A stretch of 64,000 nt of DNA from an uncultured delta proteobacterium (GTDB taxonomy: Bacteria; Desulfobacterota; Binatia; Binatales; Binataceae): positions 1,088,001-1,152,000 of the forward strand of contig CAVXXK010000001.1 in NCBI GenBank assembly GCA_963765675.1, given 5' to 3'. This document shows positions 35,475 to 59,718 of this stretch, piece after piece. Under the pieces are notes generated by a model. It made no database searches. It saw only the letters and a list, made by a program, of their open reading frames with translations, and was not told the DNA's origin. The position numbers were made by a program, and so were the translations under genes. Every line of letters starts with the position of its first letter. Position 1 is the stretch's first letter.

Positions 35475-35550
35475 GGGGCAGTAGCTCAGCTGGGAGAGCA
35501 CCACGTTCGCAACGTGGGGGTCGAGGGTTCAAATCCCTTCTGCTCCACCA
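35475..35550 (+). tRNA. tRNA-Ala(CGC)
   Basis: GGGGCAG/CTGCTCC acceptor with G3:U70, anticodon arm CCACG-TTCGCAA-CGTGG, CCA end. Confidence 0.97.
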
Positions 35551-36880
35551 TTTTTTCCTTGTAATTCAAAGGGTCTTTCCTCGAGTTTGCCCCTTCATGG
35601 GGCAAACGTGGGGCAAACTTCACTTTTCTGGCGTCCATTGGGTCGATCTTGGCAAGCTCCAATGCGTCAGCATGGCTCGCATGAATGAAGCGTCCGTAGT
35701 GGGTGCGAAGGGTACTCTCCATGACCCCGGTCTGCTCCGAAAGCCACGTCAGGTTCACGCCCTTGGTCAGGGCGACGGACACATAGGTGTCCTTTGTCGC
35801 ATAGAGGTCGCGCAGTCTAATTCCCAATGCGCGTTGCGCGGCGCAGAAGATCTTGTAGAAACTTCGTTGATCGATCGGACGGCCGAGTGAATTCTTGAAA
35901 ACATAATCGTCCGGCTCCGCGCGCAACTCGATCACCTGTTTCAGAACTTCTACATTTCGAGCGGTGAGCCGGACGACGCGTGCCGCAGCGGAAGTCTTGG
36001 GGGCGGACTCAGTGCTCAGGGAACGCGATCGCTCTACGAACAGAGTTCCCGCCGCCAGATCGAGAGATCGCACACGGAGAGCGACCGCTTCCGAGGGTCT
36101 CAATCCCGTGTAGAAGAGCGTGAAGAGAAACGCGTAGTAAGGGAAGTGAACGCCATCACGGTAAGCACCGAGGTTTCGGCCCAAACGCCAATGCTTGCGA
36201 AGAATGAATTCAAGCAGCCGATCCCGCTCATCTTCGATAAATGGATCAGGGCCCGGTACGACGCTCCGCGGCCATTCGACGTCCGTGAACGGAAATCCCG
36301 CGGCGATTCCGGCCTTCCGCGCGTCGCGCACCATTGCACGCAGCGAACTGTCGATGACGTTTCGCACAGTCTTCACGCTCAAATGCCGGTCGATTTGAAG
36401 CCGCGCTCTGAGTTCTTCAAGATGCCTCAGCGATAAATCTTTCAACGCCACATCGCCGACGTAAGGCAGGATGTAAGTATGGAAATGGTTGCGGTAGTCG
36501 CGAGCCCTTGAAGGGCGGACTATCGGTGGCACCCTTCGAGCGACCCAAGCCTCGTAATATTGGCCGATCGTGGGCTGGGCGTCGGCCTCGATGGATTCCG
36601 TTCCCCGAGACTCCGGGTGAAAATAGGCGTCCTTGCTGCCGTTCGGAAACCAGCTTAAGTAGTCGAAGTGGTCTGCCGCGATCTCCGCGCCGATAATCGC
36701 AGCCTGTTTGGAGAGGGCGGCGCGATTTTCGGGAATATCGCGCAGCGCGGTGGTTTCCGAGAACTTGTGAAGGCCGGTCGCCGATGGAATCCGCCACCGG
36801 AACCGCAAGCGCAAAAGTCCGCTGGCGGTCGCCTCGATCCAGCAACCCTGACGCCGCGCCTTCAGTTTACGAGGCGCCAT
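35486..36880 (-). CDS. Tyrosine integrase with N-terminal arm-binding domain
   Basis: FDYLSWFPNGSK arm domain, TGLRPSE, APKT, YATKDT, TG..HYGRFI; the ORF runs through the att core into the tRNA. Confidence 0.93.
   Translation of the reverse strand: MAPRKLKARRQGCWIEATASGLLRLRFRWRIPSATGLHKFSETTALRDIPENRAALSKQAAIIGAEIAADHFDYLSWFPNGSKDAYFHPESRGTESIEADAQPTIGQYYEAWVARRVPPIVRPSRARDYRNHFHTYILPYVGDVALKDLSLRHLEELRARLQIDRHLSVKTVRNVIDSSLRAMVRDARKAGIAAGFPFTDVEWPRSVVPGPDPFIEDERDRLLEFILRKHWRLGRNLGAYRDGVHFPYYAFLFTLFYTGLRPSEAVALRVRSLDLAAGTLFVERSRSLSTESAPKTSAAARVVRLTARNVEVLKQVIELRAEPDDYVFKNSLGRPIDQRSFYKIFCAAQRALGIRLRDLYATKDTYVSVALTKGVNLTWLSEQTGVMESTLRTHYGRFIHASHADALELAKIDPMDARKVKFAPRLPHEGANSRKDPLNYKEKMVEQKGFEPSTPTLRTWCSPS
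35525..35548 (+). repeat. attL core (24 bp)
   Basis: GGGTTCAAATCCCTTCTGCTCCAC, identical to 59695-59718. Confidence 0.95.
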
Positions 36881-37127
36881 TCAGGAACCCTCCTCGCTGA
36901 AGCGGTATTCCAGCGTGGTGCTGCGCGTCACGATGCTCAATGAAGCCGACAATCGCCTCCCATTTGAATACGGGCCTGCGTCCCACGTGGAAGAAGTGCT
37001 CGCCTTCACGCATGATGCCCTTAGCCATCATGGTGCGAATGGCCTGTTCGGTCCACGGCGTCAGTGCGGAGAGCTCGCGAATCGATATGTAAGGCTTGGG
37101 TTGGGTCGTAGTCTGATCGGGAGCCAT
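36867..37127 (-). CDS. Excisionase-like winged-HTH protein
   Basis: YISIRELSALTPWTEQAIRTMM..EGEHFF..GRRPVFKWEAI; directly upstream of int. Confidence 0.8.
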   Translation of the reverse strand: MAPDQTTTQPKPYISIRELSALTPWTEQAIRTMMAKGIMREGEHFFHVGRRPVFKWEAIVGFIEHRDAQHHAGIPLQRGGFLNGAS

Positions 37128-37191
37128 AACTAATGCGAACGACAGGGATGTTAAGAGTGCGCATAGTCGGCGCGCACCTGTCGTCGAACCG

Positions 37192-37231
37192 ATCATAGGC
37201 TCAGTGCCATATAATTGTCAAATTCCATAAT
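37192..37231 (-). promoter_or_regulatory. Sigma70-type promoter of xis-int with overlapping operator
   Basis: Minus strand TTGACA-N18-TATGAT; ATTATGGAATTTGACAAT (37214-37231) overlaps the -35. Confidence 0.7.
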
Positions 37232-37257
37232 TCTTATATATCGGACAGGTTTCACGA

Positions 37258-37926
37258 TTAGGTCAGCAGCAGACCCAACCGCAGGAGCCGGACCCGCGCG
37301 GCCTGTTCAGAGACCTGGCAACGCCTCATGATCCGCGCGACCACGGCGCGCCCGGGCTCCGAATCAACGTCCAGCGGGAACTTGCTCCCATCCCGCATCG
37401 CGATCTCGCCGCCCATTACGAGCACGTACGACCGCGGCATCAACAGCGCGCCGCTAATGTATGCCGCCTGCCATTCCATCCAATCGTTCTCCGGAGCGGT
37501 CACGATGGTGTCGCGGTGGCAAGTCCATGATGGCGCGGCAGGTTCGCGCTGCGCTTCTGGCCCGGACTTTCTCCACAGCGGAGCGTGAAACCAAACGTGG
37601 CCGTACTCGTGTCCGAGAGTAGTGCGGAGCCGGTTTTTGTAGCGCGGATCCGAGAGTCGTTTCGCAATCAGTACTCTCGGCTTTCGGTCGAAAAAGAAGT
37701 CGGTATGTCCGTCTTCTTCTTGCGGGAGGTCGGCGTACATGTCGAGATCGTCGGCCTCGGCCTCAATCATGCGGATCAGGTCATCGGTTGGGATCGGAAG
37801 CCTGAAGCCGCCAGCGTGGAGATCCATGAAGTCCACGACGATCCGTTCGCATCGGTCATCAAGCTCCCCGGTCTTGAAGTAGAGACGCTTGATCGGGCGT
37901 CCGAGCGGATCGCGAAGCAGCTTCAT
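37258..37926 (-). CDS. ImmA/IrrE family metallopeptidase
   Basis: RLRTTLGHEYGH, EWQA..SGALLMP, VSEQAARVRL. Confidence 0.92.
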   Translation of the reverse strand: MKLLRDPLGRPIKRLYFKTGELDDRCERIVVDFMDLHAGGFRLPIPTDDLIRMIEAEADDLDMYADLPQEEDGHTDFFFDRKPRVLIAKRLSDPRYKNRLRTTLGHEYGHVWFHAPLWRKSGPEAQREPAAPSWTCHRDTIVTAPENDWMEWQAAYISGALLMPRSYVLVMGGEIAMRDGSKFPLDVDSEPGRAVVARIMRRCQVSEQAARVRLLRLGLLLT

Positions 37927-38252
37927 TTTCGCTTGCCGGTCGGCTTGACTCCCAGCGCCTTGCGGAACGCGCGGTAGGCAGCCTCGACCCGCGGCTGGTC
38001 GGCCTCGGTCTTCACGTCCGGGGGCTGGCGATTCGCATGAAAGTACAGCACATCGGGCGAGATGCCGACAATCTTCGCGAGCTGCTCGATCAGATGGTCG
38101 TCGGGCGGATAGCGGTGATCGTGCTCGACCGCGTTGAGGTGAGGCGGATCGACGGGCCGGCCGTCTTCACGCCTTAACCGGGCAGCAACTTCTCTCTGGG
38201 TGAGCCCCGCCTTTTTCCGAGCCTCTCTGAGCACCTGGCCAAACGTCTTCAT
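37923..38252 (-). CDS. XRE-family HTH repressor
   Basis: TFGQVLREARKKAGLTQREVA; ATGA-coupled to the ImmA gene. Confidence 0.9.
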   Translation of the reverse strand: MKTFGQVLREARKKAGLTQREVAARLRREDGRPVDPPHLNAVEHDHRYPPDDHLIEQLAKIVGISPDVLYFHANRQPPDVKTEADQPRVEAAYRAFRKALGVKPTGKRK

Positions 38253-38433: not shown

Positions 38434-38721
38434 CTAACGTCCCGTCTTCGGCGCGCGCTTGCCTACGGCTCGGCGGGAATTCTTTACTGGCTCGAGTACA
38501 TTCACGCGCTGACGCATCTCGCGGACCATATCGACGATTTCCTCTCCCGAGACGTCGCTATCGATGCCCGCCACGTCGAGCGGCGAGCGACGCGAGCGTT
38601 CGGGCTGAATGAGGAACACCTGGCCGTCGCGGCGTTTCACCCGCACGGCGCCCTCGCGCCGCGCGCGTTCGAGAAGAGCGGCGAACTTCTGTCGTGCTTC
38701 GGAAAATGTATAGACCGTCAC
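38434..38721 (-). CDS. Phd/YefM-like antitoxin
   Basis: YTFSEARQKFAALLERARREGAV.VKRRDG. Confidence 0.88.
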   Translation of the reverse strand: MTVYTFSEARQKFAALLERARREGAVRVKRRDGQVFLIQPERSRRSPLDVAGIDSDVSGEEIVDMVREMRQRVNVLEPVKNSRRAVGKRAPKTGR

Positions 38722-39115
38722 GGTTGTATCTCCAATATTTTGATTCCCGCGCGGGCGGCGGCGGTCACCAACCCGTGATCGAGCGAGAGCAACGCGCAGT
38801 GATGCTGCATGGCGCAGACGAGCACATAGGCATCGTAAGCGTAGAGATCGAACTTCTGAGCCACTTCGAGCGCCCGATCAGGTCTATGTCTGAAAAGCGG
38901 ATCGGAATCTGCTGGTACGCTTCGAGTGCCCGGTGCGCGGCGCGAAGGGTGAGCCGACGGCGCTTGAACATGGCGGAAAATGCGTTGCCGACCTCCCAAT
39001 GAACCGAGGGCGGTGCAAGCAGATCCGCGGATGCGGTGGCTTTCACCAGAGCGGCGCGGTGAGGTTCGCGGACAAGAACCGCGATGATGACGGACGTATC
39101 GACCACGATCTCCAT
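38718..39115 (-). CDS. vapC: VapC PIN toxin (frameshift near 38878)
   Basis: IVVDTSVII..HWEVGNA, then shifted frame YAYDAYVL..LLSLD. Confidence 0.85.
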
Positions 39116-39461
39116 ACCTGTGCAATTGTACAATAAGACTCTCACAGTTTCCACCTGGCCCGCTGATTCGGGAGCATCCACCCGCGCGCGCCGGTCAATT
39201 ACCCTCCTTAGGCTCACAGCGAACGATCGAAGACGAGCGTCCGCATCCCCGAAGGGGCAGGACGCGCTTGTGCGGTATGGGCTTGCGTGAACATTTTGAA
39301 GGCGCGCTCCCCTCAACCGAAATAGGGGGAGCGCGCAGGATTCCGGGACGCGCGAAGCGCAACGCTGCACGGCGTGACAAGCGAAGCGTCAGGCGAAAGC
39401 CGGTGGCGCACCGTGCCCGTGGAGCGAGCGCCACCGAATTTGGCGGCGGGCGGCAGGTTAA

Positions 39462-42192
39462 TCACCTTCGCATCCCGTGGCCCCGATTTAGAATGTGCCG
39501 CTGCTCATCCGGCAGGACCGTGAACGCGGAGTGGCGAACGCCAATCTGATGCGCGATCGCCATGGATTTCTCGCGGGTACGAGCGACGGCGGGTCTCAGG
39601 CGTGCGCGATTATCCGTGAAGATCGTGAGCGCGTTTCGCGCGCGGCTGATCGACACGTAAAACTGCTTCCGATTGACCAGTTCCGGCGAGAGCCGCGTAT
39701 CGATATCGACAATGACGCGATCGACGGTCGCGCCTTGCGCGGAGTGCGACGTGGAAGCGTACCCGTGGTCGATGTGACGTAGACGATCCGCCGCGACGCT
39801 CAATTCCTTGCCGTTGTCCAAGCACAAAACGGCGCGGCGAGCGTCTACAGCTTTGATTGTGGCGAAATCGCCATTGGCAACTCCGAGTGTCCGGTCGGGT
39901 GCGCGGAACTGTATACGGTCGCCTCGTGAGAGGAGTCCTTTGTTCCTCGCGAAAGACTTCGACGCCGAACAACCGAACTGGATTGTACTCGATGCACCGC
40001 CCGCGACCCGTGTTGATCGTAAGCATGTTCGCGTCTCGGTCGACTTTTTCGACATCCCCATAGGCGCCTTTGGCGATCGCGAACTGTTTGCTTCCGCGCG
40101 TGAAGCGAATCACGTCGCCCGCCTCATAGTTGTAGGCGATCGAGCGTTGCGCGCCAGAGAGGCCGCGATTCACCAAAATGGTCTGTTCAGTTCCGAGCGG
40201 CGATATGTGACCGCGCGCGATCAGCTCGGCTCGGATCGCTCTGTTCAACTCGCGTCGCTCGTCGTTCGCCGGACTGACGACCAGAACTCGCTCCCCTGAT
40301 TGATGGGCAGCAACGTACTCGCGCGCAATCTGTTTGCGGCGCTGATCGAGGTCGGCAACTTCGCGGATATCGCCGCGGTGCTCAAGAATCGCGAGCGACT
40401 CCGCTACTTCGCCTTTGGCGGCGTGCATCACCGCTTCGCGGAGCTCGGGATCGCGTTGGCGGCGGATGGTATCGAGCCGGGTGATCAGCATTCCGTCCTC
40501 TTGCATCTGATAGATGGGCCGCCCGGCTTCGATCGCATGATGCTGGCCTTGGTCGCCCACAAAGACGATCCTCGCGATGCTTTGCTCACGGGCCTTGTGG
40601 AGAAGCCGGTTAACCTGCCGGGTCGGGAGCAGGCTCGACTCGTCCACGATCCAGACTTCGTTTGAAGCAACTCGGGTTGATGGACTTTCGAGGAGGCTGG
40701 CGACGGTCCTGGCCGACACGCCGGCCTCGGCGAGCGACTTGACCGCACGCGTCGTGGGTGCGAACCCGCAGACGATGTATCCCTGGTTTTCCGCGAATTC
40801 GCGTATCGCGCCGACCGTCGTGGTCTTGGCAGCGCCGGCGCGGCCTTCGATTGAGGTGATCCAGTCGGTGGACGCAAGCGTGAGTTCGGCGACGGCAGTC
40901 TGATCAGGAAGCAAGTTGCGCTGGCTCGCCCATCGGCGGATCTCGTTCGAATTGCTGATCGCCACCGCCCTGCCCTGGCCCGCACGCATCAGTTCGATGT
41001 TCCCGCGCTCGAGCGCGATCATCTCTGGCGTCGTGTAGGCGCCTCGTGGCGAGTTCACAGAGTCGCCGGCGACAATCAGCCGGCCTTTTGCTGGAACTGC
41101 TCGCTCTCAGCGCGTATCTGATGAAGGTCAGCTCTACCCCATCGCGTGCTGCAGAGCCTTCGCTTCAAGCGCACGGCGATCAATGATTGCTTCGCGCTCG
41201 ATATTTTCGTCGATACTCTGGCGAATGGCTTCTCCCGCCTTTTCCGGATGTCGAAACTGGATGGGGCCGCGTTCGTGCGACTGCGAAAGGTGGCGCTCGA
41301 TCTCGATTCCATATTCCTGCGCACGCGAGCGCCACTCCGCCTTGAGACTCGCTTCGTCGCGATGATCCTTGGCCAGCCGCGTTCGATGCGCGATGTTCTG
41401 CGCCGCCTCAGCGCCCGCGAGCCCTTCACGGGCGAGGGTCTGTTCGATGTCCTGGCGACGACGGGAGAACGCCATCACCTGCTCGCGCGTGTAGCCGTCA
41501 AGCTCCCATCGTCCGTCTTGTCCGGCGATCGTGATTTCGTATCCAAGCTGTTGAACCTCTCGGGCTAGTTCGGAGCGGTAAACTGCGGTCGCGAAGCTCT
41601 GGGCGCGATAGATTTCAATGGGATCGAGGCCGCGCCACTGTCCGTCCGGGCGGCGGGTCATGTTGGCGATGACGACGTGCGTGTGAAGATGAGGGTCGGG
41701 ACCGTAGCCGTCTTGAACTCCACTGGCGGGCCGAGCGGCAATGTGATCGAAGCGCGCGGCGACGATATTGCTGGTCACGACCCATTCGCTGCCGCCTCGG
41801 CGGCGCGAGAGCGCATATTGTTCGAGCTCCTCCAGTGCGCGGCTGACTGCCTTACGGTGCGCCTCGATAAGGCGGTGATCATCTCCGGCCAGCCCTTGGA
41901 TGCTCACCGATTTGGGTGCGTTGAACGTGGCGTCCCAACCTGCGCGCCTGTCGTCGTAGCCGTTCGCTTTATGAACGAGCACCTCTCCGGACGCGGGATG
42001 AAGCCCGCGCAGTACAGAGCGGAAGTCTTCGGTCGCAACCTCGCCGGAGAGTCCCAACTCTTCAGCGCCGCGGCCGAACCATTGACCTACGACCCGCTGC
42101 TTCTCGGTGTAGTAGTCGTCCTGCGAGTACTTCTCTTCGTAATAGGTCTCGGCTTGGGCGGCGGTGAGCGCGCCTTTGGACATTACCAGCAT
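39462..42192 (-). CDS. MOBF (TrwC-like) relaxase-helicase, split by three frameshifts
   Basis: YY..DDYY tyrosines, DATFNAPKSVS, DPHLHTH (HUH), GRAGAAKTT, DESS, HGYASTSHSAQGAT, YVSISRAR. Confidence 0.92.
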
Positions 42193-44013
42193 TAGTCCTG
42201 AATCCTCACCGGGGCGCCCGCGGTCCCGTTCGGAGGAGTCGGGCCGCGACTGATCGTCAGCGTCGCCAAGTCGGCGCTGGGCTCATCGCTGGCCGGCCTC
42301 GGAAGAGCGCGCGGAATGAACTCGACCTGCCGCCTGCGCGGAACGCACGGCTTCACTTTGACGCGGGCGCGATCGAGTCCGGCGATGCAGAGATAGCCTT
42401 CCAGCTTCGGCAGCCGCTGGATCTCCGACGCCATCACCACTGGCTCGGTCCGGCGCGCAGGATGGAGGTTGATACCGGTTGCCGTGCTCGGCCGTGCTTA
42501 TTCCGATCTCCTCGCGCAGCGCCTCGCGCTCGCCGATCTGCCGCGCGATGAAGGTGGCGGTCTCGGGCTCATCCACCCGCAGCAGGAGCTTGGTCGAAGG
42601 CATCGAGGCGAGCACCGCAGCCTGCTCGTGGCCATAGATCCGGCGCAGCTGTGCGATGCTCTGGAACCCCAGCACGGCGGCGAGTCCGCGCTTGCGTCCG
42701 CGCGTTACCAGCGTCTCGAGCTTCGCCTGACGGCCAAGCACCGGCAGCTCGTCCACCACGATCCAGACCCTTCGGCGATCGCCAGCGGAGTTGAGCAGGC
42801 GGCCGACAATGAGGTCGAGCCAGAGGTTCGCGAGCGGCAGCGCCGCCGAGTTGGACTCGTCGCGCATGGTCACGAACAGCCATCCTTCGGGATGCTCGGC
42901 CCATTGGAGCGCGCTCCATGGCGGTCGTCCGTCAGACGGCGGCAGGTACAGGAATGGTCTGGTCGCGTTGGCGACCGTCGCGATAATGCCGGCGCCCTGC
43001 TCGTGCGCGCCGGGATCAATCAGGCTGTATGCGGGCGTGCCGGAGATGGCCTGCTTCAACTTGTCGCGATCGAGTTCGAGCAGCTTCGGGATGCTCTGCG
43101 GCTCTCGCGGCGTGGCGACCTGAAGCAGGCTTTCGAGCAGGGTCCGGCTGGATTGCCGGAAGAAGTGGTCCGACCCACTCTCGTATCCGCGCGGCGGTTC
43201 GGGAATGAGGGACGCCGCGAGCGTCGCCGCGTCAGCCTGGTAGTAGCGCTCGCTCAATTCCAGCCACGGCGACCAGTACGGACAGCGCTCATCGACCGGG
43301 TTCAGGATCAGGTCTCCGCGCGCGGGCCGATAAAATTCCGACAGGTATTCGCACTCGGGATCGACCACGATCGCGAGCTCTCCGCGAGCCTGGATCTGGC
43401 GCAGCAGCGAGCGGATCGCCATCGACTTCCCCGCTCCGGTCGCGCCCGTGATGAGGAAATGCTCGCACTCGATCGAGCGCGGAATGCGCACTCGGGCGAG
43501 TTCGACTCCCGCCCGTTCGCTCCGCAACTCGCTGCGGTGAAGTTCGCGTGAGAGCTGGCGGGGACGGATCAGACTGAGGCCTCGCAGATGCTTCCCCTCG
43601 GGACGATCTTCGGGATCGCGGAGCAAGAGATAGCCGAGCGCGACGAGAGTCAGGCTCGCCGGTACCGCGCCCCAAACGCTGTAAGAGGCGAACCACTCCC
43701 CGAACGAGCGCCCCGAATAGAAGCGCCAGTTCAGGTATGCGTACACGCTTCCAATCGTGCAGCGATGGCCGTGGTACGGCAGCGAGAGGAAGTAGAGTGG
43801 AAGCTTCTGGGTGAAGAGCCAGGCGAGGAACCAGCGTCCGAAGTATTGATGCGCGCCCGCCACCAGCCGGCCACTCCAATACCAGACGAAGAAGAGATCC
43901 GAAGCCGCCCAGACGAGGATCCAAAGCAGCAGAAACCGGAGCCACAGGCGCAGCAGCATCGCGGCTGAACCGCAACTCAATTCGTACCTGATGGCAGTTC
44001 GTGACCAATTCAT
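42192..44013 (-). CDS. Type IV coupling protein (TrwB/TraD-like), frameshift near the C-terminus
   Basis: Two TM segments, HFLITGATGAGKS, VDELP, RGRK.G, GFQSIAQL; tail ASEIQRLPKLEGYL in 42192..42440. Confidence 0.92.
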
Positions 44014-44363
44014 ATCGTGGTTCTCCTGAGCCGCTGCATGTAGCGCTCGGCTTCCTGTTGCGCGGTCTGGCGGATCTGATCGGTAATTTCGGAGCCGACC
44101 TGATGATCGAGCAGATGCTGGAGGGTGAGCCGCGTGCGGGTGAGATCGAAGAGAATCTGGTCGAGGCTGCGCTGCTGGTTGGGTTCGCTGGCCCGCTCGT
44201 CAGGATGAGCGCCGCGATCTCCGGCGAAGTGCTCGGCGAGCACAGCACGGATCAATTTGCGCGGCGCAATTCCTCTGTCCCGCGCCGTCTTCTCGATCCG
44301 TTCCAACAGCTGCGGCGCCAGGCGGACGGTATATGGAATTTCCGGCATCGGACTGCTCTTCAT
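44010..44363 (-). CDS. Ribbon-helix-helix relaxosome accessory protein (TrwA-like)
   Basis: YTVRLAPQLLERIEKTARDRGIAPRKLIR; first gene of the RHH-T4CP-relaxase operon. Confidence 0.75.
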   Translation of the reverse strand: MKSSPMPEIPYTVRLAPQLLERIEKTARDRGIAPRKLIRAVLAEHFAGDRGAHPDERASEPNQQRSLDQILFDLTRTRLTLQHLLDHQVGSEITDQIRQTAQQEAERYMQRLRRTTI

Positions 44364-45267: not shown

Positions 45268-45726
<459 letters not shown>

Positions 45727-45759: not shown

Positions 45760-46723
45760 TTATACAGGCCGCGCTCGTGCCACATTCATGAATTTTCCGT
45801 TCGCGACACGGCGCGCTCGGAAAATTTCGGCGACCCCTAGAAGGCGCAATTTGCTGCGATCTCCTTCGAACAGAGCCGGATGGGCCAGCAGGGCTTCTAT
45901 ACCTGCGCGGGACAGCGGCTGCAGCCAGATCGGCCAGACGAAAAACCATCCGTCACTTTCGCGAGTAGCTCCGACAACTTGCATTCGGCTCGCACGGGAT
46001 GCGGTCGAGAACGACAGAAACCCGATGGCGGCGAGACGATTCGCGCCGACCACCGTCGGCGCCGCGCCGGCGAGGCTGGGGTCATCGTATCTGAGCGCGT
46101 AGCGCTGATCGTCTTCGGGATCCCAACGGAATCCGTCCGCATCATCCTCGCGCCGCCAGGGCTGGAATAACGCTTCGGCGATTCTAGCGGCTTCGGTGAA
46201 ATCCGGAGGCGACTTGAGCTTCTGCAGGCGATTCGGAAGGCTGCCGCGCGCCACGTCGACCAGCCGTTCCAGAAAATTCTGATGTCCTTGTCCGAACATC
46301 ATTACCAAAGGCGCCGCAGAGAGGCGGCCGTCTTTTTTCTGGAGCTTCTGGGGCCACTCCGCCGTCAACGCCGAGGCGAGGGCGGCTCCAACGGATTTCT
46401 TCTGCATGCGAGTGGCGTATGAACGATAATCCTCGGCGGTAAAATCAACGTTCGTACGTTGATCAACGTCGAAATGCTGAGTGAGCTCCGCAAGTCCTTC
46501 ATTCGCCGCCTGCGCGATCTCTATCTGCTCCGGAAAAGCGGCGAGGTGTAACTGTGCCGCCCACGGCGGACCCTTCAGGAGATGCGCGGCTGCCAATCGG
46601 GCCGTGCGGTTTCGAGCGCGTGAAGAAGTCCGAGCAGCGCCAGAATGCTAATAGATTATCGGGTTCGAGGCCCGGCATCGGAAGCGATTGCGTGTCGCCT
46701 GCGGGATCGAGCGGCGTCATCAT
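45760..46723 (-). CDS. Type I-G short large-subunit-type Cas protein (Cas8g/Csb3-like), two frameshifts near the 5' end
   Basis: GLEPDNLLAF(L)ALLG, MMFGQGHQNFL, RWDPEDDQRYALR, GANRLA, WPIW; ATGA-coupled to cas3; indels at about 46644 and 46576. Confidence 0.8.
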
Positions 46724-49656: not shown

Positions 49657-51113
49657 AAGTCTCGCTCCTCAGCCAGCGGCAGGCACAGACCAAAACCGTG
49701 AAAGCGACCGGCACCGATGAGCACGGGACCCTCGACCGGCTCGGGGAATCTCAGGATCACATGGCGGCGCGGCCGGCTGGCGAACTTTGCGCCGTCGGGG
49801 AAGCTCCAGTCAGGTCCGGGACGTTTTCCGCCCGGCGAGTACGCCGATGGAGCGCCCTGCACGGCGGGATGCTTGTGAATCTCGATCTCCACGGGCTCGG
49901 GCAGTCCGATATTGCCGCAGGCTGCGGCAATCAGGCGACCCTCTTCTATCGGATCTCCATGATCGGGATATCGGTCCAGGAGCACGGGTGTGGCGCTGGC
50001 CCACGAGATGGCGGCCCGGCACCAACGTTCGGGCTTGAGAGAGGCGCGCGATGGTGTAACCGTACGCTCGACGCGCCAGAGCATTGTGGAGGAGAGGCGC
50101 AACTCCGCATACGCCTCGCTGTCCTCATTGACAGGTGCAAATCCTCCGAGCGCGCGTAGAACGCGGTTCCGGTCAGTACCCTCCGCAGTGCGCGGCAGGA
50201 TAACCGCGAAGCCAAGCAAATCCCCTGTTGCATGAGACCATCCAACATTGGCAAGGGGAACGATCGCGAGATGCGGCCTGGAACTAGCTTCACCGCCGGG
50301 CGTATGACCCGAGATGATCTCCGGGCTCGGTTGCGGTCCATGCTTCATCAAGGAAGCGCGTACGCACTTCGCCACGTGCGCAAAAGCCAAGAGATCGGGG
50401 CGAACACCGCCCGCGTCTTCGAATACGAACCAATCCTGCGCGGCGCCGAAAACGCTTTTGGTCGCCTGCGTCGGCGGTGGCGGCTCGGGTTCGAGGTAAC
50501 GGATCGACATGCCGCTTTGCGGCCGCTCGTCTTTAGAGAGCCAGTCTTCCAGGCGCCGCAAACGACCGGGATGTGCGACTCGCAGCGCGACGTTTCCATC
50601 GGTGTCAGGGTGCCAGAGCAGCGAGCCGTCTTCCGTCGCATCGATGAAGGCGAAACGAACTAGGGAAGCAGAATGCCCGAGGCTCGCAACGCGATGGGCC
50701 AGAGCCTCAAGCGCAGTTCGGTGCTCGGACTGGCCGGGCGCTTCGTGCCAGATCAATCTAACGGTCGAATGGACCGGAATCGCGACCTGAAAGTTGCGGG
50801 CTTGCCGGGACCTGCGGTCGGGGAGCAGAGCAATCCTGTCCTTATCTCTGGGCGAATCGTTCGGCGGAACAAAAACCGTTGGTGTCGAGCGTTGGTCGCA
50901 GCCCCGCATCGGATCAGCTTCTATGCGGGGTGCGGTAAGAGATTCCAGCCATTCAAGGGCCGCGCGCTCCTTGACATCACACCCGCCGTAACCCCAAGCC
51001 TGCACCAATGCCGAGAACGCGCGCTCCGGATGCGGCGGCCATTCCGCGGCAGAATTGTCCGGCAACGCGGCGCGGTAAACGCCGGTGAGCAACTCGATTT
51101 CGAGTGCAAGCAT
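49653..51113 (-). CDS. csb2: Type I-G Csb2 (Cas5-Cas6 fusion)
   Basis: EWPPHPERAFSALV, FVPPND, GHSASLV, WASATP, GPVLIGAGRFHGFGLC. Confidence 0.93.
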   Translation of the reverse strand: MLALEIELLTGVYRAALPDNSAAEWPPHPERAFSALVQAWGYGGCDVKERAALEWLESLTAPRIEADPMRGCDQRSTPTVFVPPNDSPRDKDRIALLPDRRSRQARNFQVAIPVHSTVRLIWHEAPGQSEHRTALEALAHRVASLGHSASLVRFAFIDATEDGSLLWHPDTDGNVALRVAHPGRLRRLEDWLSKDERPQSGMSIRYLEPEPPPPTQATKSVFGAAQDWFVFEDAGGVRPDLLAFAHVAKCVRASLMKHGPQPSPEIISGHTPGGEASSRPHLAIVPLANVGWSHATGDLLGFAVILPRTAEGTDRNRVLRALGGFAPVNEDSEAYAELRLSSTMLWRVERTVTPSRASLKPERWCRAAISWASATPVLLDRYPDHGDPIEEGRLIAAACGNIGLPEPVEIEIHKHPAVQGAPSAYSPGGKRPGPDWSFPDGAKFASRPRRHVILRFPEPVEGPVLIGAGRFHGFGLCLPLAEERDF

Positions 51114-51119: not shown

Positions 51120-52409
51120 TCATTCCTTCGCGGGCTCGGCGTCCGTTTCCTCTTCGGCTTTTCCCTGGAGAGCCAATTCGCGGCTCGCGCTGACCAGTTG
51201 CACCAGCTTCGCTTGCGGCTTCAGAACAAGATCCTCCTCGTTCCAGCCGAGTCCCGCAGCCCTCGCAGCCCCAACGGCCTCGGTCGCCAAACGGGTAGCC
51301 TGGCCGAAATCGAGGTCCACCATTTCGATGGCGCCGTTGGTATCGATGATTTCGAAGCCGGGCGCGGAATTCCCCTCAGGGATAAGATCGCATCGCGAGC
51401 GCAGAAAATATCCATTGCGATCCTGCGCGGCGACGGCGGCAAGGCCTAAGGCGGCCAGTGCAGTCTGCGCCGCCCAATCCGCAGCCAAACCGCTGGAACC
51501 GGCCACGAAGCGCAAGCGGCGCAAGGCCGCGAAAGAAAGCACGAAGCTATGCAGCACGTAGTCGACGCTGACTCCGAGTAATGCAACGGTCGGCGCGATA
51601 TTGGAATGATTGATCTCCGACGGCCTCACTTCCTTTGGCGCATCTTTACCCTTTTTCTCTTTCGGCGGCTCGAGAGACCAATCACCGTTTGGAAATTTGT
51701 AGACCGTTATGCCGCTTCGGATGCCGAGCGGATCGATACGGCTGCCCGTCCGCTTTCCCGAAGGTTGGTCAAGCACTTCAAGCTCGCCGGTACGGCGATT
51801 GAGGAACGGTTCGCGCTCCGTTGCCACTCCGACGCCAACGATCTCCGATACGACGCAGCGAGGAAACTTAGCGCCGAGACCGCCGCCTTCTGAGGTTGAA
51901 TTCCAAGCGCCGAATACCAGCGCGGTCGGCGAAAGCTCATAGACAGCGCGCGCATTGTTTGATTTTGCTTCTGTGAGACGGCGACCTTGTTCTGTCTCCC
52001 GGAAGCGGATGCCGTTCAGTTCGGAATCCCGGATGATCGCGTCGAAAACACGATGCGGCGCATCGAGCGTGGTGATGCGGCCGATGTCAGCAACCTCGGT
52101 GTTCGAAAAATCGACGGTGATCATTGGGAAGTTAAGAGCGCCCGTCTCCCGCGCGACCTTCAGCGCCTCCTCTAGGCGGTTAGCCTGACTCTGCACGCTG
52201 TCGATCAATACGCAGAGCACATTCTCGCCCCCGATTCGTCGCCGCTCGAAGACATGGCGCGGCGGCACATTACGGCCGCCACGGTCACCTGGATAGGTTG
52301 GCGGGAAGATCTTGTCGCCGGGGCCGCCAGTAGGCTGTAGCTTCCGAACGCGCCGGATTGCGGCCGCGTTCGCAACTGAGGTGCGCAATTTTTCCAATGT
52401 AACGATCAT
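51120..52409 (-). CDS. csb1: Type I-G Csb1/Cas7
   Basis: KIFPPTY, IDSVQSQANRLE, APHRVFDA, PTALVFGAWNS, SRIDPLGI, LRSRCDL. Confidence 0.95.
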   Translation of the reverse strand: MIVTLEKLRTSVANAAAIRRVRKLQPTGGPGDKIFPPTYPGDRGGRNVPPRHVFERRRIGGENVLCVLIDSVQSQANRLEEALKVARETGALNFPMITVDFSNTEVADIGRITTLDAPHRVFDAIIRDSELNGIRFRETEQGRRLTEAKSNNARAVYELSPTALVFGAWNSTSEGGGLGAKFPRCVVSEIVGVGVATEREPFLNRRTGELEVLDQPSGKRTGSRIDPLGIRSGITVYKFPNGDWSLEPPKEKKGKDAPKEVRPSEINHSNIAPTVALLGVSVDYVLHSFVLSFAALRRLRFVAGSSGLAADWAAQTALAALGLAAVAAQDRNGYFLRSRCDLIPEGNSAPGFEIIDTNGAIEMVDLDFGQATRLATEAVGAARAAGLGWNEEDLVLKPQAKLVQLVSASRELALQGKAEEETDAEPAKE

Positions 52410-52715: not shown

Positions 52716-52734
52716 TACCCACCCCTGATTGGAA
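52716..52734 (-). promoter_or_regulatory. Predicted target of the mini-CRISPR guide (TTC PAM plus partial protospacer)
   Basis: Minus strand TTC-CAATCAGGGGTGGGTA versus guide CAATCCGGCGTGGGTA (14/16); about 10 bp upstream of a TTGCAT -35-like hexamer. Confidence 0.75.
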
Positions 52735-52739
52735 AGAGA

Positions 52740-52768
52740 TTGATTCTGGCGTATGGGCCTGCTAGCTT
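52740..52768 (+). promoter_or_regulatory. Promoter of the mini-CRISPR RNA
   Basis: TTGATT-N17-TAGCTT with extended TG; predicted start near 52775. Confidence 0.65.
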
Positions 52769-52775
52769 TAAGTTG

Positions 52776-52869
52776 TGTTCCGACGTCGGCCTTATTGAAG
52801 GCAATCCGGCGTGGGTAGGCATCGCCCAAACTGTTGCATTTTCCGCCCTCCCGGCGGCCTCTTTGGGGA
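52776..52869 (+). ncRNA. One-spacer mini-CRISPR / crRNA-like RNA (CreA/CreR-like)
   Basis: Degenerate repeat TGTTCCGACGTCGGCCTTATTGAAGG, 36-nt spacer, degenerate repeat ATTTTCCGCCCTCCCGGCGGCCTCTTTGGGGA. Confidence 0.8.
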
Positions 52870-52894
52870 CGGATTACCCGTCCCCTCCTTTTTT
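52865..52894 (+). terminator. Intrinsic terminator closing the mini-CRISPR transcript
   Basis: GGGGACGG-ATTAC-CCGTCCCC stem, then TCC-T6. Confidence 0.78.
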
Positions 52895-53019
52895 CAGGAC
52901 GCCGTGACTGCTTTCTCTTAACAAATAGTGTACAGAAAGAATAGTAGCGCATCGCGGCACTGATGCGCGGCGGGAACCTTCTTTTAGCAAATCGTGTAGA
53001 GAAAAACGGGAATAATCCC

Positions 53020-53349
53020 ATGCGCAAGACCTACCTCGTTTGCTACGACATTCGCGACGACAAGCGGCTGCGGACCGTGTACAAGACCATGCGCGATTTT
53101 GGGGATCATCTTCAGTACTCGATTTTCGAATGCCAGTTCACTGCCGCTGATCTCGTCCGATGCCGTCATGTTCTCAGCGAAATCATCGACCATCGAAAAG
53201 ACCAGGTGCTGTTCGTCGATCTCGGTCCGGTCGAGGGGCGTGGCGATCGCGTGATAACCGCGCTCGGGCAGGCATACTCGCCGATTGATAGTCCTTGCAT
53301 CGTTGTCGATGACGAATCCGAATCGCGGACCAAACAAGATCCATTGTAG
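53020..53349 (+). CDS. cas2: Cas2
   Basis: YLVCYDIRDDKRLR, LQYSIFEC, DQVLFVDLG. Confidence 0.96.
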   Translation: MRKTYLVCYDIRDDKRLRTVYKTMRDFGDHLQYSIFECQFTAADLVRCRHVLSEIIDHRKDQVLFVDLGPVEGRGDRVITALGQAYSPIDSPCIVVDDESESRTKQDPL

Positions 53350-53363
53350 CGAGGCGCACCCTT

Positions 53364-55193: not shown

Positions 55194-55373
55194 GTGATGC
55201 GAGCGGCGAGGTGACGACGAAAACCGGGCAGCCGCTCGATGCCTTGAAGAGCTTGCATATATTGGACTTTCCGACTACGCGAAGGAGAGGCCGCCGATTT
55301 ATCGCGCGGGTGGCGATGGACACTCGCAAAGCGTCTCAAAGTTCTTTGAAAATTCAATAGTTAGAAGCGGTCG
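55194..55373 (+). promoter_or_regulatory. CRISPR leader
   Basis: Non-coding, AT-richer at its 3' end, abuts the first intact repeat; the degenerate repeat is at the far end of the array. Confidence 0.75.
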
Positions 55374-58361
55374 ATTTCCGCGCTCATCGGAGCGCGGCCC
55401 CATTGAAGTTTTCGCCTCGATTGCATGGGTATGGCCAGTAGCTTCGCATTTCCGCGCTCATCGGAGCGCGGCCCCATTGAAGTAACCGGCCAACGCTTCG
55501 CGGCGATCCCCGCGTTCACTACATTTCCGCGCTCATCGGAGCGCGGCCCCATTGAAGTCCTTTGGCGTCCCGGTGGCCCAGATGCCAGAAGTGAATTTCC
55601 GCGCTCATCGGAGCGCGGCCCCATTGAAGTGTCGAGTCCGCAGTGCGCAATCTCCAGCGGTTTTTCATTTCCGCGCTCATCGGAGCGCGGCCCCATTGAA
55701 GTATTTCTTCGATCCGGTCAACGCGGTGGTGCGTCTGGTCTCATTTCCGCGCTCATCGGAGCGCGGCCCCATTGAAGTAGCGTCGCGAAGAGCAGTTCCG
55801 CGCCTTCGAGGCGGCAGAAATTTCCGCGCTCATCGGAGCGCGGCCCCATTGAAGTTACGAAATCAGCTTTTACGCGAACCGACCGACATTCATCATTTCC
55901 GCGCTCATCGGAGCGCGGCCCCATTGAAGTTCGTTCCCCGCTGGCGGCTCAGTTGATCAGATTCTCATTTCCGCGCTCATCGGAGCGCGGCCCCATTGAA
56001 GTCGACTGCAGGCGCGAATAGCAACATCACGTCGCTGAATTTCCGCGCTCATCGGAGCGCGGCCCCATTGAAGTCGGATGATGGGGCGAAAGCGCACCGG
56101 CGAGAGATCGAATTTCCGCGCTCATCGGAGCGCGGCCCCATTGAAGTGATATACACGATTTCGCAAACGTCGATCCCGCGATGGTATTTCCGCGCTCATC
56201 GGAGCGCGGCCCCATTGAAGTCTCGTCACCACCGCCGTTCACCTTCCGCAGTGCGCATTTCCGCGCTCATCGGAGCGCGGCCCCATTGAAGTACCAATAC
56301 TACCATTCCGCAGATCGAGATGTTCTCGATATTTCCGCGCTCATCGGAGCGCGGCCCCATTGAAGTCTGATCGACCTCGCGCAGAACCAGACGCAAATCC
56401 TGACCAATTTCCGCGCTCATCGGAGCGCGGCCCCATTGAAGTAAGACGGCGTAACCGGAACCGCCGGCGAGCGGACCGCCCGATTTCCGCGCTCATCGGA
56501 GCGCGGCCCCATTGAAGTATCACGAAGTCCGAGAAGCGCGGCGGGCTCTCCCATATTTCCGCGCTCATCGGAGCGCGGCCCCATTGAAGTTGAAAAACGA
56601 GGTTGTGCTCGGCATCAACGCAATCGGATTTCCGCGCTCATCGGAGCGCGGCCCCATTGAAGTGTGCGCGCGTCGCTGGTGGATTTGACGCGGCTGACGA
56701 ATTTCCGCGCTCATCGGAGCGCGGCCCCATTGAAGTGCGCCGGGCGACCGGGTGATCCAACTGAGTAATGACTAATTTCCGCGCTCATCGGAGCGCGGCC
56801 CCATTGAAGTGTAGAAAGGGACGGCCGCATCCAGCGCAGCAGTCCGTCAATTTCCGCGCTCATCGGAGCGCGGCCCCATTGAAGTGCGGATCATCTGGTC
56901 GATGATCGGTTGCGGCACATCATTTCCGCGCTCATCGGAGCGCGGCCCCATTGAAGTGGCGCCGGTCGCGGTGCACGCGCCCGCAGCGCTCTTGCCAAAT
57001 TTCCGCGCTCATCGGAGCGCGGCCCCATTGAAGTGGCGATAGTGGCACTGTGTCTCGTCGCCCATTTCCACATTTCCGCGCTCATCGGAGCGCGGCCCCA
57101 TTGAAGTCTGAATAGCACGGGGCTGCTGTGCTCGGACGGTACTTACATTTCCGCGCTCATCGGAGCGCGGCCCCATTGAAGTTCAAGGTGTTGTCGCCGC
57201 GCTGCGCAAGGGGTTCAGATTTCCGCGCTCATCGGAGCGCGGCCCCATTGAAGTGTAATCCGCCCTGCCGCGTCGAGCGAGTTCTTTCTCGAATTTCCGC
57301 GCTCATCGGAGCGCGGCCCCATTGAAGTAACGCCCGTCGGGGTCTGTTCCGACTCGTGTGTTTCAACATTTCCGCGCTCATCGGAGCGCGGCCCCATTGA
57401 AGTCTGAAAAGCATGCGCGCGCTGTCGCCAGCGTGGGACGCGATTTCCGCGCTCATCGGAGCGCGGCCCCATTGAAGTTTCCGCAGCCCATGCCTCTGTG
57501 CGCTGCTTGCTCGGGATTTCCGCGCTCATCGGAGCGCGGCCCCATTGAAGTGTAGCCTCGCGATACGGTGTCTACGATGTAGGTAACTTGCGAATTTCCG
57601 CGCTCATCGGAGCGCGGCCCCATTGAAGTGCATCGCTGACGGTGCATATCGCACCCACCGGTGGATTTCCGCGCTCATCGGAGCGCGGCCCCATTGAAGT
57701 GATAATCCCGATTTTGCCAGTGGCGAGGACAATCTCGCATTTCCGCGCTCATCGGAGCGCGGCCCCATTGAAGTCGCGCGAACTTGCCCAGATGCGGCGG
57801 CAGCTTGCGGATTTCCGCGCTCATCGGAGCGCGGCCCCATTGAAGTGATTTCCTGTTCGGATACGTCGGTAGCCGCGGGCATATTTCCGCGCTCATCGGA
57901 GCGCGGCCCCATTGAAGTGAGAGCATCGCGCCGCCGGCCGTCGGAGCGCCGAAGATATTTCCGCGCTCATCGGAGCGCGGCCCCATTGAAGTCCGAGCGC
58001 GAGGGCTAGCTTAAAGAGGAATCGCCGATTTCCGCGCTCATCGGAGCGCGGCCCCATTGAAGTTTCGGATCGAGCGGTGGGCCCGCGCACCGGAAAATTC
58101 ATTTCCGCGCTCATCGGAGCGCGGCCCCATTGAAGTAGTTGTGGCCGCGATGGCTGATGATCGGCGGATGCAGATTTCCGCGCTCATCGGAGCGCGGCCC
58201 CATTGAAGCAGGATCGTCGCCGTGCCGCTGGAACCCGCGCCATCGTGACAATTTCCGCGCTCATCGGAGCGCGGCCCCATTGAAGTCGCCTACGCTTTGC
58301 GGGACGTTGACCGGCTGCTTGACGAATTTTTGCGCTCATCGGAGCGCGGCCCCATTGAAGC
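55374..58361 (+). CRISPR. Type I-G CRISPR array, 41 repeats / 40 spacers (35-42 nt)
   Basis: 36-bp repeat ATTTCCGCGCTCATCGGAGCGCGGCCCCATTGAAGT with stem CCGCGCTC/GAGCGCGG, counted by hand; terminal repeat degenerate (ATTTTTGCG...GAAGC). Confidence 0.98.
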
Positions 58362-58626
58362 GTGCTCGCGCGCGCGTCGCGGCGCCGAAGGACACATACC
58401 GAGCATCGAAGATGACGAGGACGCGCTTGAGGACCATTTCACAATCGACCGGGTAGAGCGTGGGCGAATATGGCTTGAGGCAATGGACGGAAAGGATTTG
58501 GGCCCAATCGCACTGCGCCCAGCTCTCGCCCGTCAATGCAAGGTCGGATGGGAGATCGCCGGTGTCGTCAGCCGGGTGCGCGGCAGATGGCAATTGCTGG
58601 AGGTGTGGAACGTCTATCCGCATTGA
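58362..58626 (+). pseudogene. C-terminal fragment of a hypothetical protein, truncated at the array end
   Basis: EDHFTIDRVERGRIWLE..GPI..CKVGWEIAG..GRWQLLEVWNVYPH*; no start codon outside the array. Confidence 0.6.
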
Positions 58627-58633
58627 CGCCGGA

Positions 58634-58786
58634 TGGAGAGACGTCGCTCAGCACTCTTGTGGCGGTGCTCCGGGCTTTGGGAGCCGATCCGAAGATCGTC
58701 GCGAGCTTTCCGACTACGAAGTGCGGATTTCCAACTTGCGCAAGCTGGCGCGGAATCGGGAAACAGTGAGACAGTCCCGCGCCTGA
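58634..58786 (+). pseudogene. C-terminal remnant of an XRE/HigA-like antitoxin
   Basis: SLSTLVAVLRALGADPKIVASFP, then shifted frame DYEVRISNLRKLA. Confidence 0.5.
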
Positions 58787-58872
58787 ACCGTTCGGCGTAC
58801 AGCTTCATCTTGAGCGCGGTCGCGGTTCGCTGCATGCTAGTAAATCAGCATCGTTTCGGAAGGAGGCAATTT

Positions 58873-59130
58873 ATGCCCAACCGTGTCACGGTACGTAATG
58901 TCAGAGCAAAGGAATTGAGTGCTGCGCTCCGCCGACGCTTCCATCTTGTACCTGATGAGGAGGTCAGTGTCACCGTGACCAGAGCGAGCGCGAGAAATGC
59001 GCCGCGCCGGAATGATCCGTGGGTGGAGATTCGGGGTACGCTTACCGCCGACGAGGCCGACGCGATGGTCCGCGCGATTCACACAAGCCGACGCAACAAG
59101 AGTGACGCTCCCGAGGTCGACGCGCCGTGA
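58873..59130 (+). CDS. Putative antitoxin (VapB position)
   Basis: AGGAGG RBS; 85 aa; GTGA-coupled to the PIN toxin. Confidence 0.75.
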   Translation: MPNRVTVRNVRAKELSAALRRRFHLVPDEEVSVTVTRASARNAPRRNDPWVEIRGTLTADEADAMVRAIHTSRRNKSDAPEVDAP

Positions 59131-59525
59131 ATTGGCTCCTGGATACAGACACGATCGTTTACTACATGAGGGCGATGCCGGCAGTGGTCGGGCAGCTTGA
59201 GGCGACGCGCGTCTCAAGCCGTTATGTTTCGCTGATAACGCTTGGCGAGCTCTACTTCGGGATTTTCCGCTCCGCGCAGGTAGAGAAAAATTTGCGGAGG
59301 TACCGCCGATTCTTTGCAAAGGTGAAACTCTTGCCTTTCACTCCCGCGATTGCCGAGCGGTTCGGTGTAATAAAAGCCGATCTGGCAAGGCGCGGTGAAA
59401 TAATAGCCGATCATGATCTCTGGATTGCCGCGCACGCGCTTGTACAAGGGGCAACGCTCGTGACTAACAACGAGCGCGACTTCGCGCGCATTTCAGGCTT
59501 GCGGATCGAAAACTGGGCTAAGTAG
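59127..59525 (+). CDS. vapC: VapC PIN toxin
   Basis: WLLDTD, ITLGELYFG, DLWIAAHA, LVTNNERDF.RISGLRIENW. Confidence 0.93.
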   Translation: MNWLLDTDTIVYYMRAMPAVVGQLEATRVSSRYVSLITLGELYFGIFRSAQVEKNLRRYRRFFAKVKLLPFTPAIAERFGVIKADLARRGEIIADHDLWIAAHALVQGATLVTNNERDFARISGLRIENWAK

Positions 59526-59603
59526 GCGCACGCAGGCTTGGCAGTTTGTCGGGTCGGAGCAGTGCGAAGAACGAAATGTATGATTTTGCACCAGCGCCTG
59601 TAG

Positions 59604-59627
59604 AGTTTGCCCCACGTGGGGCAAACT
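59604..59627. repeat. Perfect 24-bp palindrome, probable integrase arm-type sites
   Basis: AGTTTGCCCCACGTGGGGCAAACT; the same GGGGCAAAC motif occurs three times at 35585-35618. Confidence 0.75.
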
Positions 59628-59694
59628 GTACCAAAACAGCCACTTTGGGACACATTTCGGGCCGAAAAACCTAAGGTTTTCCGGGCTTTCTTGG

Positions 59695-59718
59695 GGGTTC
59701 AAATCCCTTCTGCTCCAC
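59695..59718 (+). repeat. attR core (24 bp)
   Basis: Duplicate of the tRNA-Ala 3' end. Confidence 0.95.

Follow-up and report, generated by a model that had tools for sequence, protein, structure and literature searches.

Some integrative and mobilizable elements (IMEs) encode a relaxase together with a type IV coupling protein (T4CP) and borrow the type IV secretion system (T4SS) of a helper. The 24.2-kb element described here lies at a tRNA-Ala gene in a 64,000-nt stretch of DNA from an uncultured member of the Binataceae (this whole stretch is the window of what follows). It resembles such IMEs in having an integrase with att sites, a relaxase, a T4CP and no VirB4, and its cargo is a type I-G CRISPR-Cas system. 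Unlike them, the family to which it belongs begins its transfer operon with a gene for a VirB2/TrbC-like pilin and another for a DUF2274 protein; we have met no description of this pair on IMEs in the literature, in which no dedicated search for that point was made. As to regulation, the ImmR/ImmA-type switches of integrative and conjugative elements (ICEs), such as that of ICEBs1, have an XRE repressor gene that overlaps an M78 protease gene near int. Judged from its genes alone, our element has the same arrangement, the two overlapping genes standing beside int, and it differs from these switches in the candidate operator palindrome at its trbC promoter.

CRISPR-Cas systems on conjugative islands and plasmids are already known; far less is on record about small helper-dependent islands with a complete adaptive system. 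In the sections of PMC4669384 drawn upon here, the pKLC102-like ICEs of Pseudomonas aeruginosa are tRNA-integrated mobile islands that carry a full type I (I-C) CRISPR-Cas system as cargo, much as our element does, but they exceed 100 kb and have their own conjugation machinery, whereas the element here measures 24 kb and has no channel ATPase. It differs from them further in the type of its system, in its uncultured soil lineage and in the transfer genes that are broken in this copy. CampyICE1 of Campylobacter, as presented in parts of PMC8743540, is another CRISPR system on an integrative element and the kind of source from which a reading as warfare against rival elements derives: it is conjugative and has a Cas9-only type II-C system without adaptation genes, and 63.7% of its spacers map to plasmids. 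The element here has Cas1, Cas2 and Cas4, and none of its 40 spacers has a known target. For the CRISPR system itself, the closest described relative is the type I-G system of Thioalkalivibrio sulfidiphilus, with Csb2, Cas7g, a Cas3g with C-terminal HD domain, a Cas4-Cas1 fusion and no Cas11 gene, all of which hold here as well; parts of that account also mention three size variants of Cas8g, that of T. sulfidiphilus being the large Cas8g1 (Csx17) (PMC9638904). Our locus departs from it in having a short, 278-aa Cas8g downstream of cas3g and an effector operon that diverges from the adaptation genes. The full-text literature on Binatia or Binatota with CRISPR, and on CRISPR-Cas with ICEs or IMEs, yielded no such Binataceae element.

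Our reading, to which we give a probability of about 0.7, is that the region is a decayed IME from a CRISPR-carrying family common in Binataceae-type soil bacteria, and that this copy has become stranded and is kept for immunity. A tyrosine integrase with an arm-binding domain, together with an Xis-like protein, would recombine the element at a 24-nt core in the 3' end of tRNA-Ala(CGC), with an XRE repressor and an ImmA-type protease in control. A sigma-70-like promoter would drive an operon for the TrbC-like pilin, DUF2274, a ribbon-helix-helix (RHH) protein, the T4CP and a MOBF relaxase; the products would nick the element and pass it on to the mating channel of some other element. The cargo site would be the slot upstream of this transfer promoter, occupied here by a complete type I-G system (Cas7g, Csb2, Cas3g, short Cas8g, Cas2, Cas4-Cas1 and 40 spacers). 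Six insertions or deletions (indels) have most likely inactivated the relaxase, the T4CP and the toxin of one toxin-antitoxin (TA) pair, so that the element would no longer promote its own transfer, and the stranded copy would persist because its host profits from the CRISPR-Cas system.

The borders of the element are real. Its 24-nt att cores, an exact duplication as a preliminary description of the region had claimed, form the sole non-CRISPR direct repeat of at least 18 nt in 34000-61500 and bracket 24.2 kb (Table 1). The same core is present at all eight tRNA-Ala loci inspected in relatives, whose genomes and loci bear G and L numbers here (G000 being the window's own genome). Five of these sites are empty, the tRNA running straight into the flank that follows attR in the window (G009, G001, G005, G013 and the unpublished G010). 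Three others (G007, G003 and G004), which are sister elements at tRNA-Ala of the kind for which a search had been proposed, share the attL arm and an integrase that matches ours in a single segment at 94-98% identity; in G003 the attR end is present too, with a VapC pair 99% identical. Because relatives show both empty and occupied sites, we take the cores to be true junctions and the locus to vary among relatives. In the whole window the 9-mer GGGGCAAAC has six copies where 0.41 would be expected, and five of the six lie no more than about 100 nt inside the element ends; these are likely arm-type sites for the N-terminal domain of the integrase. Apart from the tRNA, an Rfam scan of the region found no RNA family. 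Contigs from four public soil-metagenome runs (X1-X4), compared over 39801-59800, a stretch with attL outside it, contained no att-to-att junction. In the cas3g gene of G005, a core-like 24-mer was rejected as an att site, being a coding coincidence within a Cas3 motif.

It could be objected that the CRISPR-Cas locus is chromosomal and that a mobile element merely landed alongside, and it is true that the nearest relatives of the effector module (L045, L046, L048 and L053), which have the same divergent layout of effector and adaptation genes, show no element genes in their 10-kb flanks. However, the two att cores enclose both the cas genes and the array, the empty sites of relatives are devoid of backbone and CRISPR system alike, and sister elements at tRNA-Pro (G048) and tRNA-Val (L083) have type I-G systems at the same position beside trbC. 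A chromosomal origin of this kind appears to us hardly credible.

Further copies of the core occur in this neighborhood. One with 23 of the 24 nt lies at L042:6270 (window coordinate ~65269, a little past the end of the window), 5.5 kb beyond attR, accompanied by ~160 nt that resemble the tRNA downstream flank (71%); the interval holds genes for a glutathione S-transferase, a cyclase/AAA/TPR protein and DUF924, and no integrase. Second copies of core and flank are found in G009, G005 and G013 as well, some lying 37-50 kb away from the tRNA. They may be the trace of an older island or of tandem accretion at tRNA-Ala.

Table 1. Features of the tRNA-Ala element, in window coordinates (ORF, open reading frame).
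Feature	Coordinates	Strand	Basis
tRNA-Ala(CGC), integration target	35475..35550	+	ARAGORN; Rfam tRNA 66.9 bits
Tyrosine integrase, 464 aa, arm-binding N-terminal domain	35486..36880	-	Pfam Phage_integrase, Arm-DNA-bind_2, Phage_int_SAM_3
attL core, 24 nt, tRNA 3' end	35525..35548		exact direct repeat
Three GGGGCAAAC copies, candidate arm-type integrase sites inside attL	35585..35618		
Putative Xis/AlpA-like ORF, 109 aa, overlapping int start	36867..37196	-	
ImmA-like M78 protease (37258-37926) and XRE repressor (37923-38252)	37258..38252	-	Pfam Peptidase_M78, HTH_31/HTH_3
PIN toxin pseudogene and intact Phd/YefM-type antitoxin (38434-38721)	38434..39180	-	
MOBF (TrwC-type) relaxase-helicase pseudogene	39462..42192	-	TrwC, AAA_30, UvrD_C in three ORFs
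TraD/TrwB-type coupling protein (T4CP)	42192..44013 (ORF 42283-44013)	-	TrwB_AAD_bind
RHH/CopG-like protein	44010..44363	-	Pfam CopG_antitoxin E 1.2e-4, below curated cut-off
DUF2274 gene	44627-44869	-	Pfam DUF2274 47.8 bits
TrbC/VirB2-like pilin gene	44914-45228	-	Pfam TrbC 36 bits
Sigma-70-like promoter (TTGACA, 17 nt, TAATTA) overlapped by perfect palindrome ATTATGAAATTTCATAAT	45298..45324	-	read from sequence
Scar of earlier cas3g gene, 40 residues (model positions 144-183 only)	45373..45492	+	NCBIfam TIGR02621 E 6.6e-13; PADLOC Cas3g E 1.5e-14
Short Cas8g large subunit, 278 aa (NCBIfam 'Cas3-extension family')	45760..46596	-	PADLOC PDLC01514 Cas8g E 1.3e-55; NF049934 132.6 bits
Cas3g helicase-nuclease, 978 aa, intact	46720..49656	-	TIGR02621 769.8 bits, positions 1-854/854
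Csb2 (Cas5-Cas6 fusion), intact	49653..51113	-	TIGR02165 270.7 bits (cut-off 45), positions 1-491/492
Csb1/Cas7g, intact	51120..52409	-	Pfam Cas_GSU0053 174.5 bits; TIGR02570 70.3 bits (cut-off 38)
cas2	52963-53349	+	Cas2 profile match
cas4-cas1 fusion	53364-55193	+	NF049935 735.4 bits, positions 1-546/546
Leader (55194-55373) and CRISPR array (55374-58361)	55194..58361	+	41 repeats of 36 nt, 40 spacers of 35-42 nt
165-aa ORF of unassigned family overlapping VapC PIN toxin gene (59127-59525)	58633..59525	+	
Two GGGGCAAAC copies, inverted pair, candidate arm-type sites inside attR	59605..59626		
attR core, 24 nt	59695..59718		exact direct repeat; native tRNA downstream sequence after

Relative to intact orthologues, the transfer genes of this copy are damaged. 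Alignment places three single-base indels in the relaxase gene, near 41130, 41085 and 39935; the intact orthologues of G005 and G048 are 909 aa long, that of L083 907 aa. The T4CP gene has one extra T near 42472, a base absent from nine soil contigs and from G007 and L083, which read through to give proteins of 607 aa. The conserved C-terminus of the T4CP thus sits in the frame of the ORF at 42192-42440 ('orf82'), and the TrwB_AAD_bind domain covers positions 3-342 of 387, against 3-376 in the paralogues of the same genome. Two 1-nt deletions relative to G048, near 39153 and 38879, affect the PIN toxin, whose domain is divided between two frames here and intact (153 aa) in G048. Soil contigs in X1, X3 and X4 do not have the four transfer-gene indels (39934, 41085, 41130, 42472); since such contigs come from relatives, they document the intact state and not the correctness of the window's own bases. 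The six indels all fall within ~5.3 kb of transfer and toxin genes and outside long homopolymer runs. The 9.4 kb of cas coding sequence contain none, 38 chromosomal ORFs of the window are all unbroken, and integrase, regulators, att sites and the whole set of cas genes are intact.

Going by these sequence comparisons, the frameshifts in relaxase and T4CP seem genuine, and for this reason, and because the genome has no mating-channel ATPase, the present copy does not appear to be a working vehicle now. The preliminary description had called the element complete and had seen in it a vehicle that spreads immunity. The borders bear out the first point, the six single-base indels in relaxase, T4CP and PIN genes do not; the second holds for the family, in which the same slot is used in other genomes and at other tRNA sites and in which L083 is intact, and fails for this copy with its broken transfer genes. 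Frameshifts in relaxase and T4CP that look real largely amount to what that description would have taken, together with a lack of excision, to mean a fixed relic.

Could the element nevertheless be a working mobilizable vehicle, its frameshifts being sequencing errors, or its losses being complemented in trans by another relaxase and T4CP in combination with a helper channel on a plasmid or ICE missing from the assembly? Beyond the intact integrase, XRE/ImmA genes and att cores, the Xis-like ORF and the arm sites are intact too; of 121 genomes in the bacterial family, 9 have VirB4 genes, and metagenome-assembled genomes (MAGs) often miss plasmids. The clustering of the indels and their position outside long homopolymer runs speak against sequencing error. 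As to complementation, the paralogues in question are only ~68% DNA-identical to the element's genes, so that their recognition of its origin of transfer (oriT) is doubtful, and the genome has no VirB4. We consider continued mobility of this copy unlikely.

Several observations do weigh against a stranded copy kept for immunity. The indels could be assembly errors, the best public run holding 27% of the sampled words, and these in contigs only, and a chromosomal glucodextranase gene elsewhere in the genome is also split over two overlapping ORFs. The intact paralogues at C1:83-88 kb, a relaxase of 994 aa and a T4CP of 603 aa, might act in trans. The ability of this copy to excise, and the activity of its CRISPR system, are what intact genes, att sites and near-perfect repeats would predict from the sequence alone, and the latter stands without any protospacer. 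Finally, the GC content of the element (0.607) is equal to that of the host (0.615), so that composition gives no sign of recent arrival. The split gene itself is at L040:14319-16899 (G000:C1 ~92.3-94.9 kb), one ORF holding positions 1-133 of Glucodextran_N and the next 135-262; whether a true pseudogene or the result of an assembly indel, it bears on the trust to be placed in single-base indels of this assembly.

The transfer operon begins with trbC and the DUF2274 gene, followed, after a small ORF on the same minus strand, by the gene for the RHH/CopG-like protein, whose position is conserved in family members and which is a probable relaxosome accessory factor. Just upstream of trbC, the perfect 18-nt palindrome ATTATGAAATTTCATAAT is a candidate operator for the operon; promoter and palindrome are conserved in G048, and the paralogues have a TTGACA promoter at the same place. 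A complete T4SS with a VirB4-type ATPase, such as would make an ICE, is present neither in the element nor in its genome: a profile search found no VirB4 (PF03135) in the 95.6%-complete genome, while its positive control matched in Caulobacter. What is present fits an IME, namely an integrase, an exact 24-nt repeat in tRNA-Ala with empty and occupied sites in relatives, and, in place of a complete mating channel, only the TrbC-like pilin and DUF2274 genes; the element's own relaxase and T4CP are broken in this copy and intact in sister copies. No oriT was located in the element. The RHH-T4CP-MOBF module that had been reported is thus there in all three genes, two of them frameshifted, and the reported lack of VirB4 or other channel genes is correct for VirB4, but overlooks the pilin and DUF2274 genes.

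Such a pair invites the idea that the family descends from a self-transmissible ICE whose channel genes were deleted between trbC and the DUF2274 gene, leaving both as vestiges without a role. The two genes are adjacent with no other channel gene, and in some proteobacterial ICEs trbC and DUF2274 genes flank the trb operon. The pair is, however, kept in most of the 60 loci in which we found the T4CP, DUF2274 remains 62-90% identical where matched, even where the T4CP has drifted to ~50%, and the pair sits right behind the operon promoter; conservation and promoter-proximal position point to selection and not to a vestige. Nor do the VirB4 loci of G009 and G048 contain any relative of the element's TrbC, DUF2274, T4CP or relaxase, the only hit being a TrbC match of 28% in two other loci. 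Descent by such a deletion strikes us as quite improbable.

The 60 loci of the T4CP scan are nearly all from MAGs named Binataceae, Binatus or 'uncultured delta proteobacterium', and most of them also carry TrbC, DUF2274, the relaxase and XRE/ImmA. The family occupies at least five tRNA sites: tRNA-Ala(CGC) in the window copy, L079, L081 and L131; tRNA-Pro(GGG) in G048; tRNA-Val(CAC) in L083; and tRNA-Asn and tRNA-Glu in further copies of the window's own genome. Horizontal spread is indicated by G048, a member of another genus, where DNA identity to the window is 74% in core genes over 12.6 kb but 89% in the relaxase region, and where the XRE protein is 97% identical. The copies elsewhere in the window's genome have no CRISPR system. 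Two on contig C1, at 1-5.3 kb (L039, cut by the contig start) and 81.6-89.6 kb (L040), keep the order from trbC and DUF2274 to T4CP and relaxase with no other channel gene; the second, at tRNA-Asn, is compact and is the one with the intact relaxase and T4CP. The third (C6:1-3500, L041), at tRNA-Glu, is a fragment with int, XRE, ImmA, Phd and PIN genes in which ImmA is frameshifted.

CRISPR-Cas is a recurrent but minority cargo of this family. Among the 23 loci with a T4CP identity of at least 76%, cas genes occupy this same flanking slot in five (L083, L089, L090, L111 and L133), and the proteins of L089 and L090 are 100% identical to those of G005 and G048, so that these are not independent of those two genomes. 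A PADLOC scan of 87 of the 89 cargo ORFs from 13 loci detected cas genes only in L083, AbiE in L080 and a PDC-S15 candidate in L086, L088 and L112. More broadly, a match to the cas region with E no higher than 1e-40 is present in 22 of the 121 genomes of the bacterial family, a count that takes in the unpublished G010, G067 and G083. L083 (1-21542) is an apparently fully intact sister: it has a 607-aa T4CP, a 907-aa relaxase, integrase, XRE/ImmA and trbC, with cas3g (946 aa), a Csb3-type cas8g, cas7g and csb2 whole and part of cas4-cas1. Decay, on the other hand, is seen in other sisters, G005 having an IS21 insertion in its T4CP gene and G048 frameshifts, with the T4CP split in three. The family thus shows type I-G systems moving between genera and tRNA sites, and transfer genes that decay repeatedly once the island is resident (the window frameshifts, IS21 in G005, the frameshifts in G048). 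Taken alone, the window copy is an ordinary decaying island, and the member best suited to functional tests is L083.

As reported earlier, the type I-G system takes up about 12.6 kb of the element, with 40 spacers and no other sizeable cargo. Its seven cas ORFs span 45760-55193, all of them full-length profile matches, and comprise what defines the type: Csb2, a Cas3g with C-terminal HD domain (residues 770-940), Cas7g, Cas8g, and Cas4-Cas1 and Cas2 with an adjacent array. The effector looks complete, in a short-Cas8g variant, since the 278-aa protein encoded downstream of cas3g matches the PADLOC Cas8g model; in L046 this protein is fused to Cas3g. Its predicted structure was too poor for a fold search (predicted local distance difference test, pLDDT, 37.2). 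Cas8g1/Csx17 (TIGR04113) was not found in the window's genome, in a search whose positive control matched nowhere. The array has 39 identical repeats among its 41; the last, degenerate through three changes, sets the polarity of the array and places the leader at 55194-55373. Three further ORFs, at 45692-46102 (+), 52285-52722 (-) and 52680-53027 (-), are probably not genes: they match no family and lie across genuine genes or the region of the divergent promoter.

Comparison with the sisters suggests that the cargo slot has a history of exchange. The adaptation genes are 96-99% identical to those of G005 and G003; in G005, cas2 is 99% and cas4-cas1 96% identical, and the array uses the same repeat in 71 copies. 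The effector genes of G005 are collinear with those of the window but different, its cas3g being cut to 667 aa and csx17 missing; G048 has a Csx17-type effector module in fragments. In the window the short-Cas8g module stands in inverted orientation, and the cas3g scar that it shares with G048 lies beside it. Given the inverted module, the scar and the differing effectors of the sisters, the segment ~45700-53014 looks swapped in, the adaptation genes and the array having stayed, and an exchange of effector modules beside a constant array and adaptation set is what we see in the family as a whole. We would tentatively extend this: the backbone may be a recurrent type I-G carrier in whose slot by the trbC promoter at least three effector modules have been taken up or exchanged (a Csx17-type Cas8g1 in G048, a Csb3-type in L083 and the short Cas8g in the window) while adaptation genes and repeat remained nearly constant. 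In the same speculative vein, a pilin-like subunit of its own and DUF2274, in addition to T4CP and relaxase, could be a possibly undescribed way for an IME to exploit the mating channel of a helper.

The spacers have so far given no clue to their targets, although matching them to virus and plasmid databases for targets and a protospacer adjacent motif (PAM) had been proposed. No target was found in the window's own genome (best match 26 nt with two mismatches), among the plasmids of PLSDB and the phages of INPHARED (whole-array blastn, E 0.01 or better), in the relatives' loci compared up to that point, or in IMG/VR, where exact first-26-nt patterns of 3 of the 40 spacers were scanned; without a protospacer, no PAM is derivable here, TTN being the one reported for type I-G (PMC9638904). 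The earlier suggestion that the spacers may act against competing mobile elements finds no support in these searches. The array shares no spacer with those of G005 and G048. The soil runs X1-X4 give low cover of the cas effector genes. One X4 contig, corresponding to window 55366-58100, joins the leader straight to repeat 38, which hints, from this single contig, at an array variant that shares only the three oldest spacers, the 37 others having been either gained in the window lineage or lost in the variant. Spacers 24 and 28 (57108-57442) share 17 of their first 22 bases, other pairs resembling each other more weakly; this may be chance or the repeated sampling of related targets.

At the attL end, the integrase and XRE-ImmA genes are as first described. 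The integrase ORF extends across the att core and on into the tRNA gene (35486-35548), its catalytic region stopping before the core; its last ~12 residues would therefore change on excision, giving 464 aa in the integrated and 459 aa in the excised state. The xis gene of the preliminary description corresponds to the 109-aa ORF overlapping the int start, and its identity is less firm: it matches no Pfam (E up to 5), NCBIfam or PHROG family, and its predicted structure (pLDDT 43.7) was too low for a fold search. It is conserved, at 90% in G007 and 62% in the C6 copy of the same genome, and falls in an Atlas neighbor cluster (score 0.94) in which 77% of members carry HTH_17. The ImmA/XRE genes show a weak likeness to CapP/CapH.

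A TA pair had been placed on each side of the cargo. That next to attR is a probable one, judged from the 165-aa ORF and the overlapping VapC gene, whose product scores 125 bits with NF047863, under the 140-bit cut-off, and 53 bits with Pfam PIN; the other, the PIN-Phd pair, lies between the relaxase and XRE genes and has a frameshifted toxin. The 165-aa ORF has no usable Atlas match, and neither it nor orf69 nor an 88-aa ORF has any match in Pfam (E up to 5) or PHROGs. Two more PIN-domain genes occur in the chromosomal part of the window, at 4981-5469 and 10182-10592, so that PIN toxins are numerous in this genome. Also outside the element, a truncated tyrosine integrase of 312 aa with N-terminal loss (1162-2100) adjoins a tRNA-Val(CAC) gene (2137-2214); it shares 63% identity with the integrase of L083, likewise at tRNA-Val, and is probably the remnant of another member of the family.

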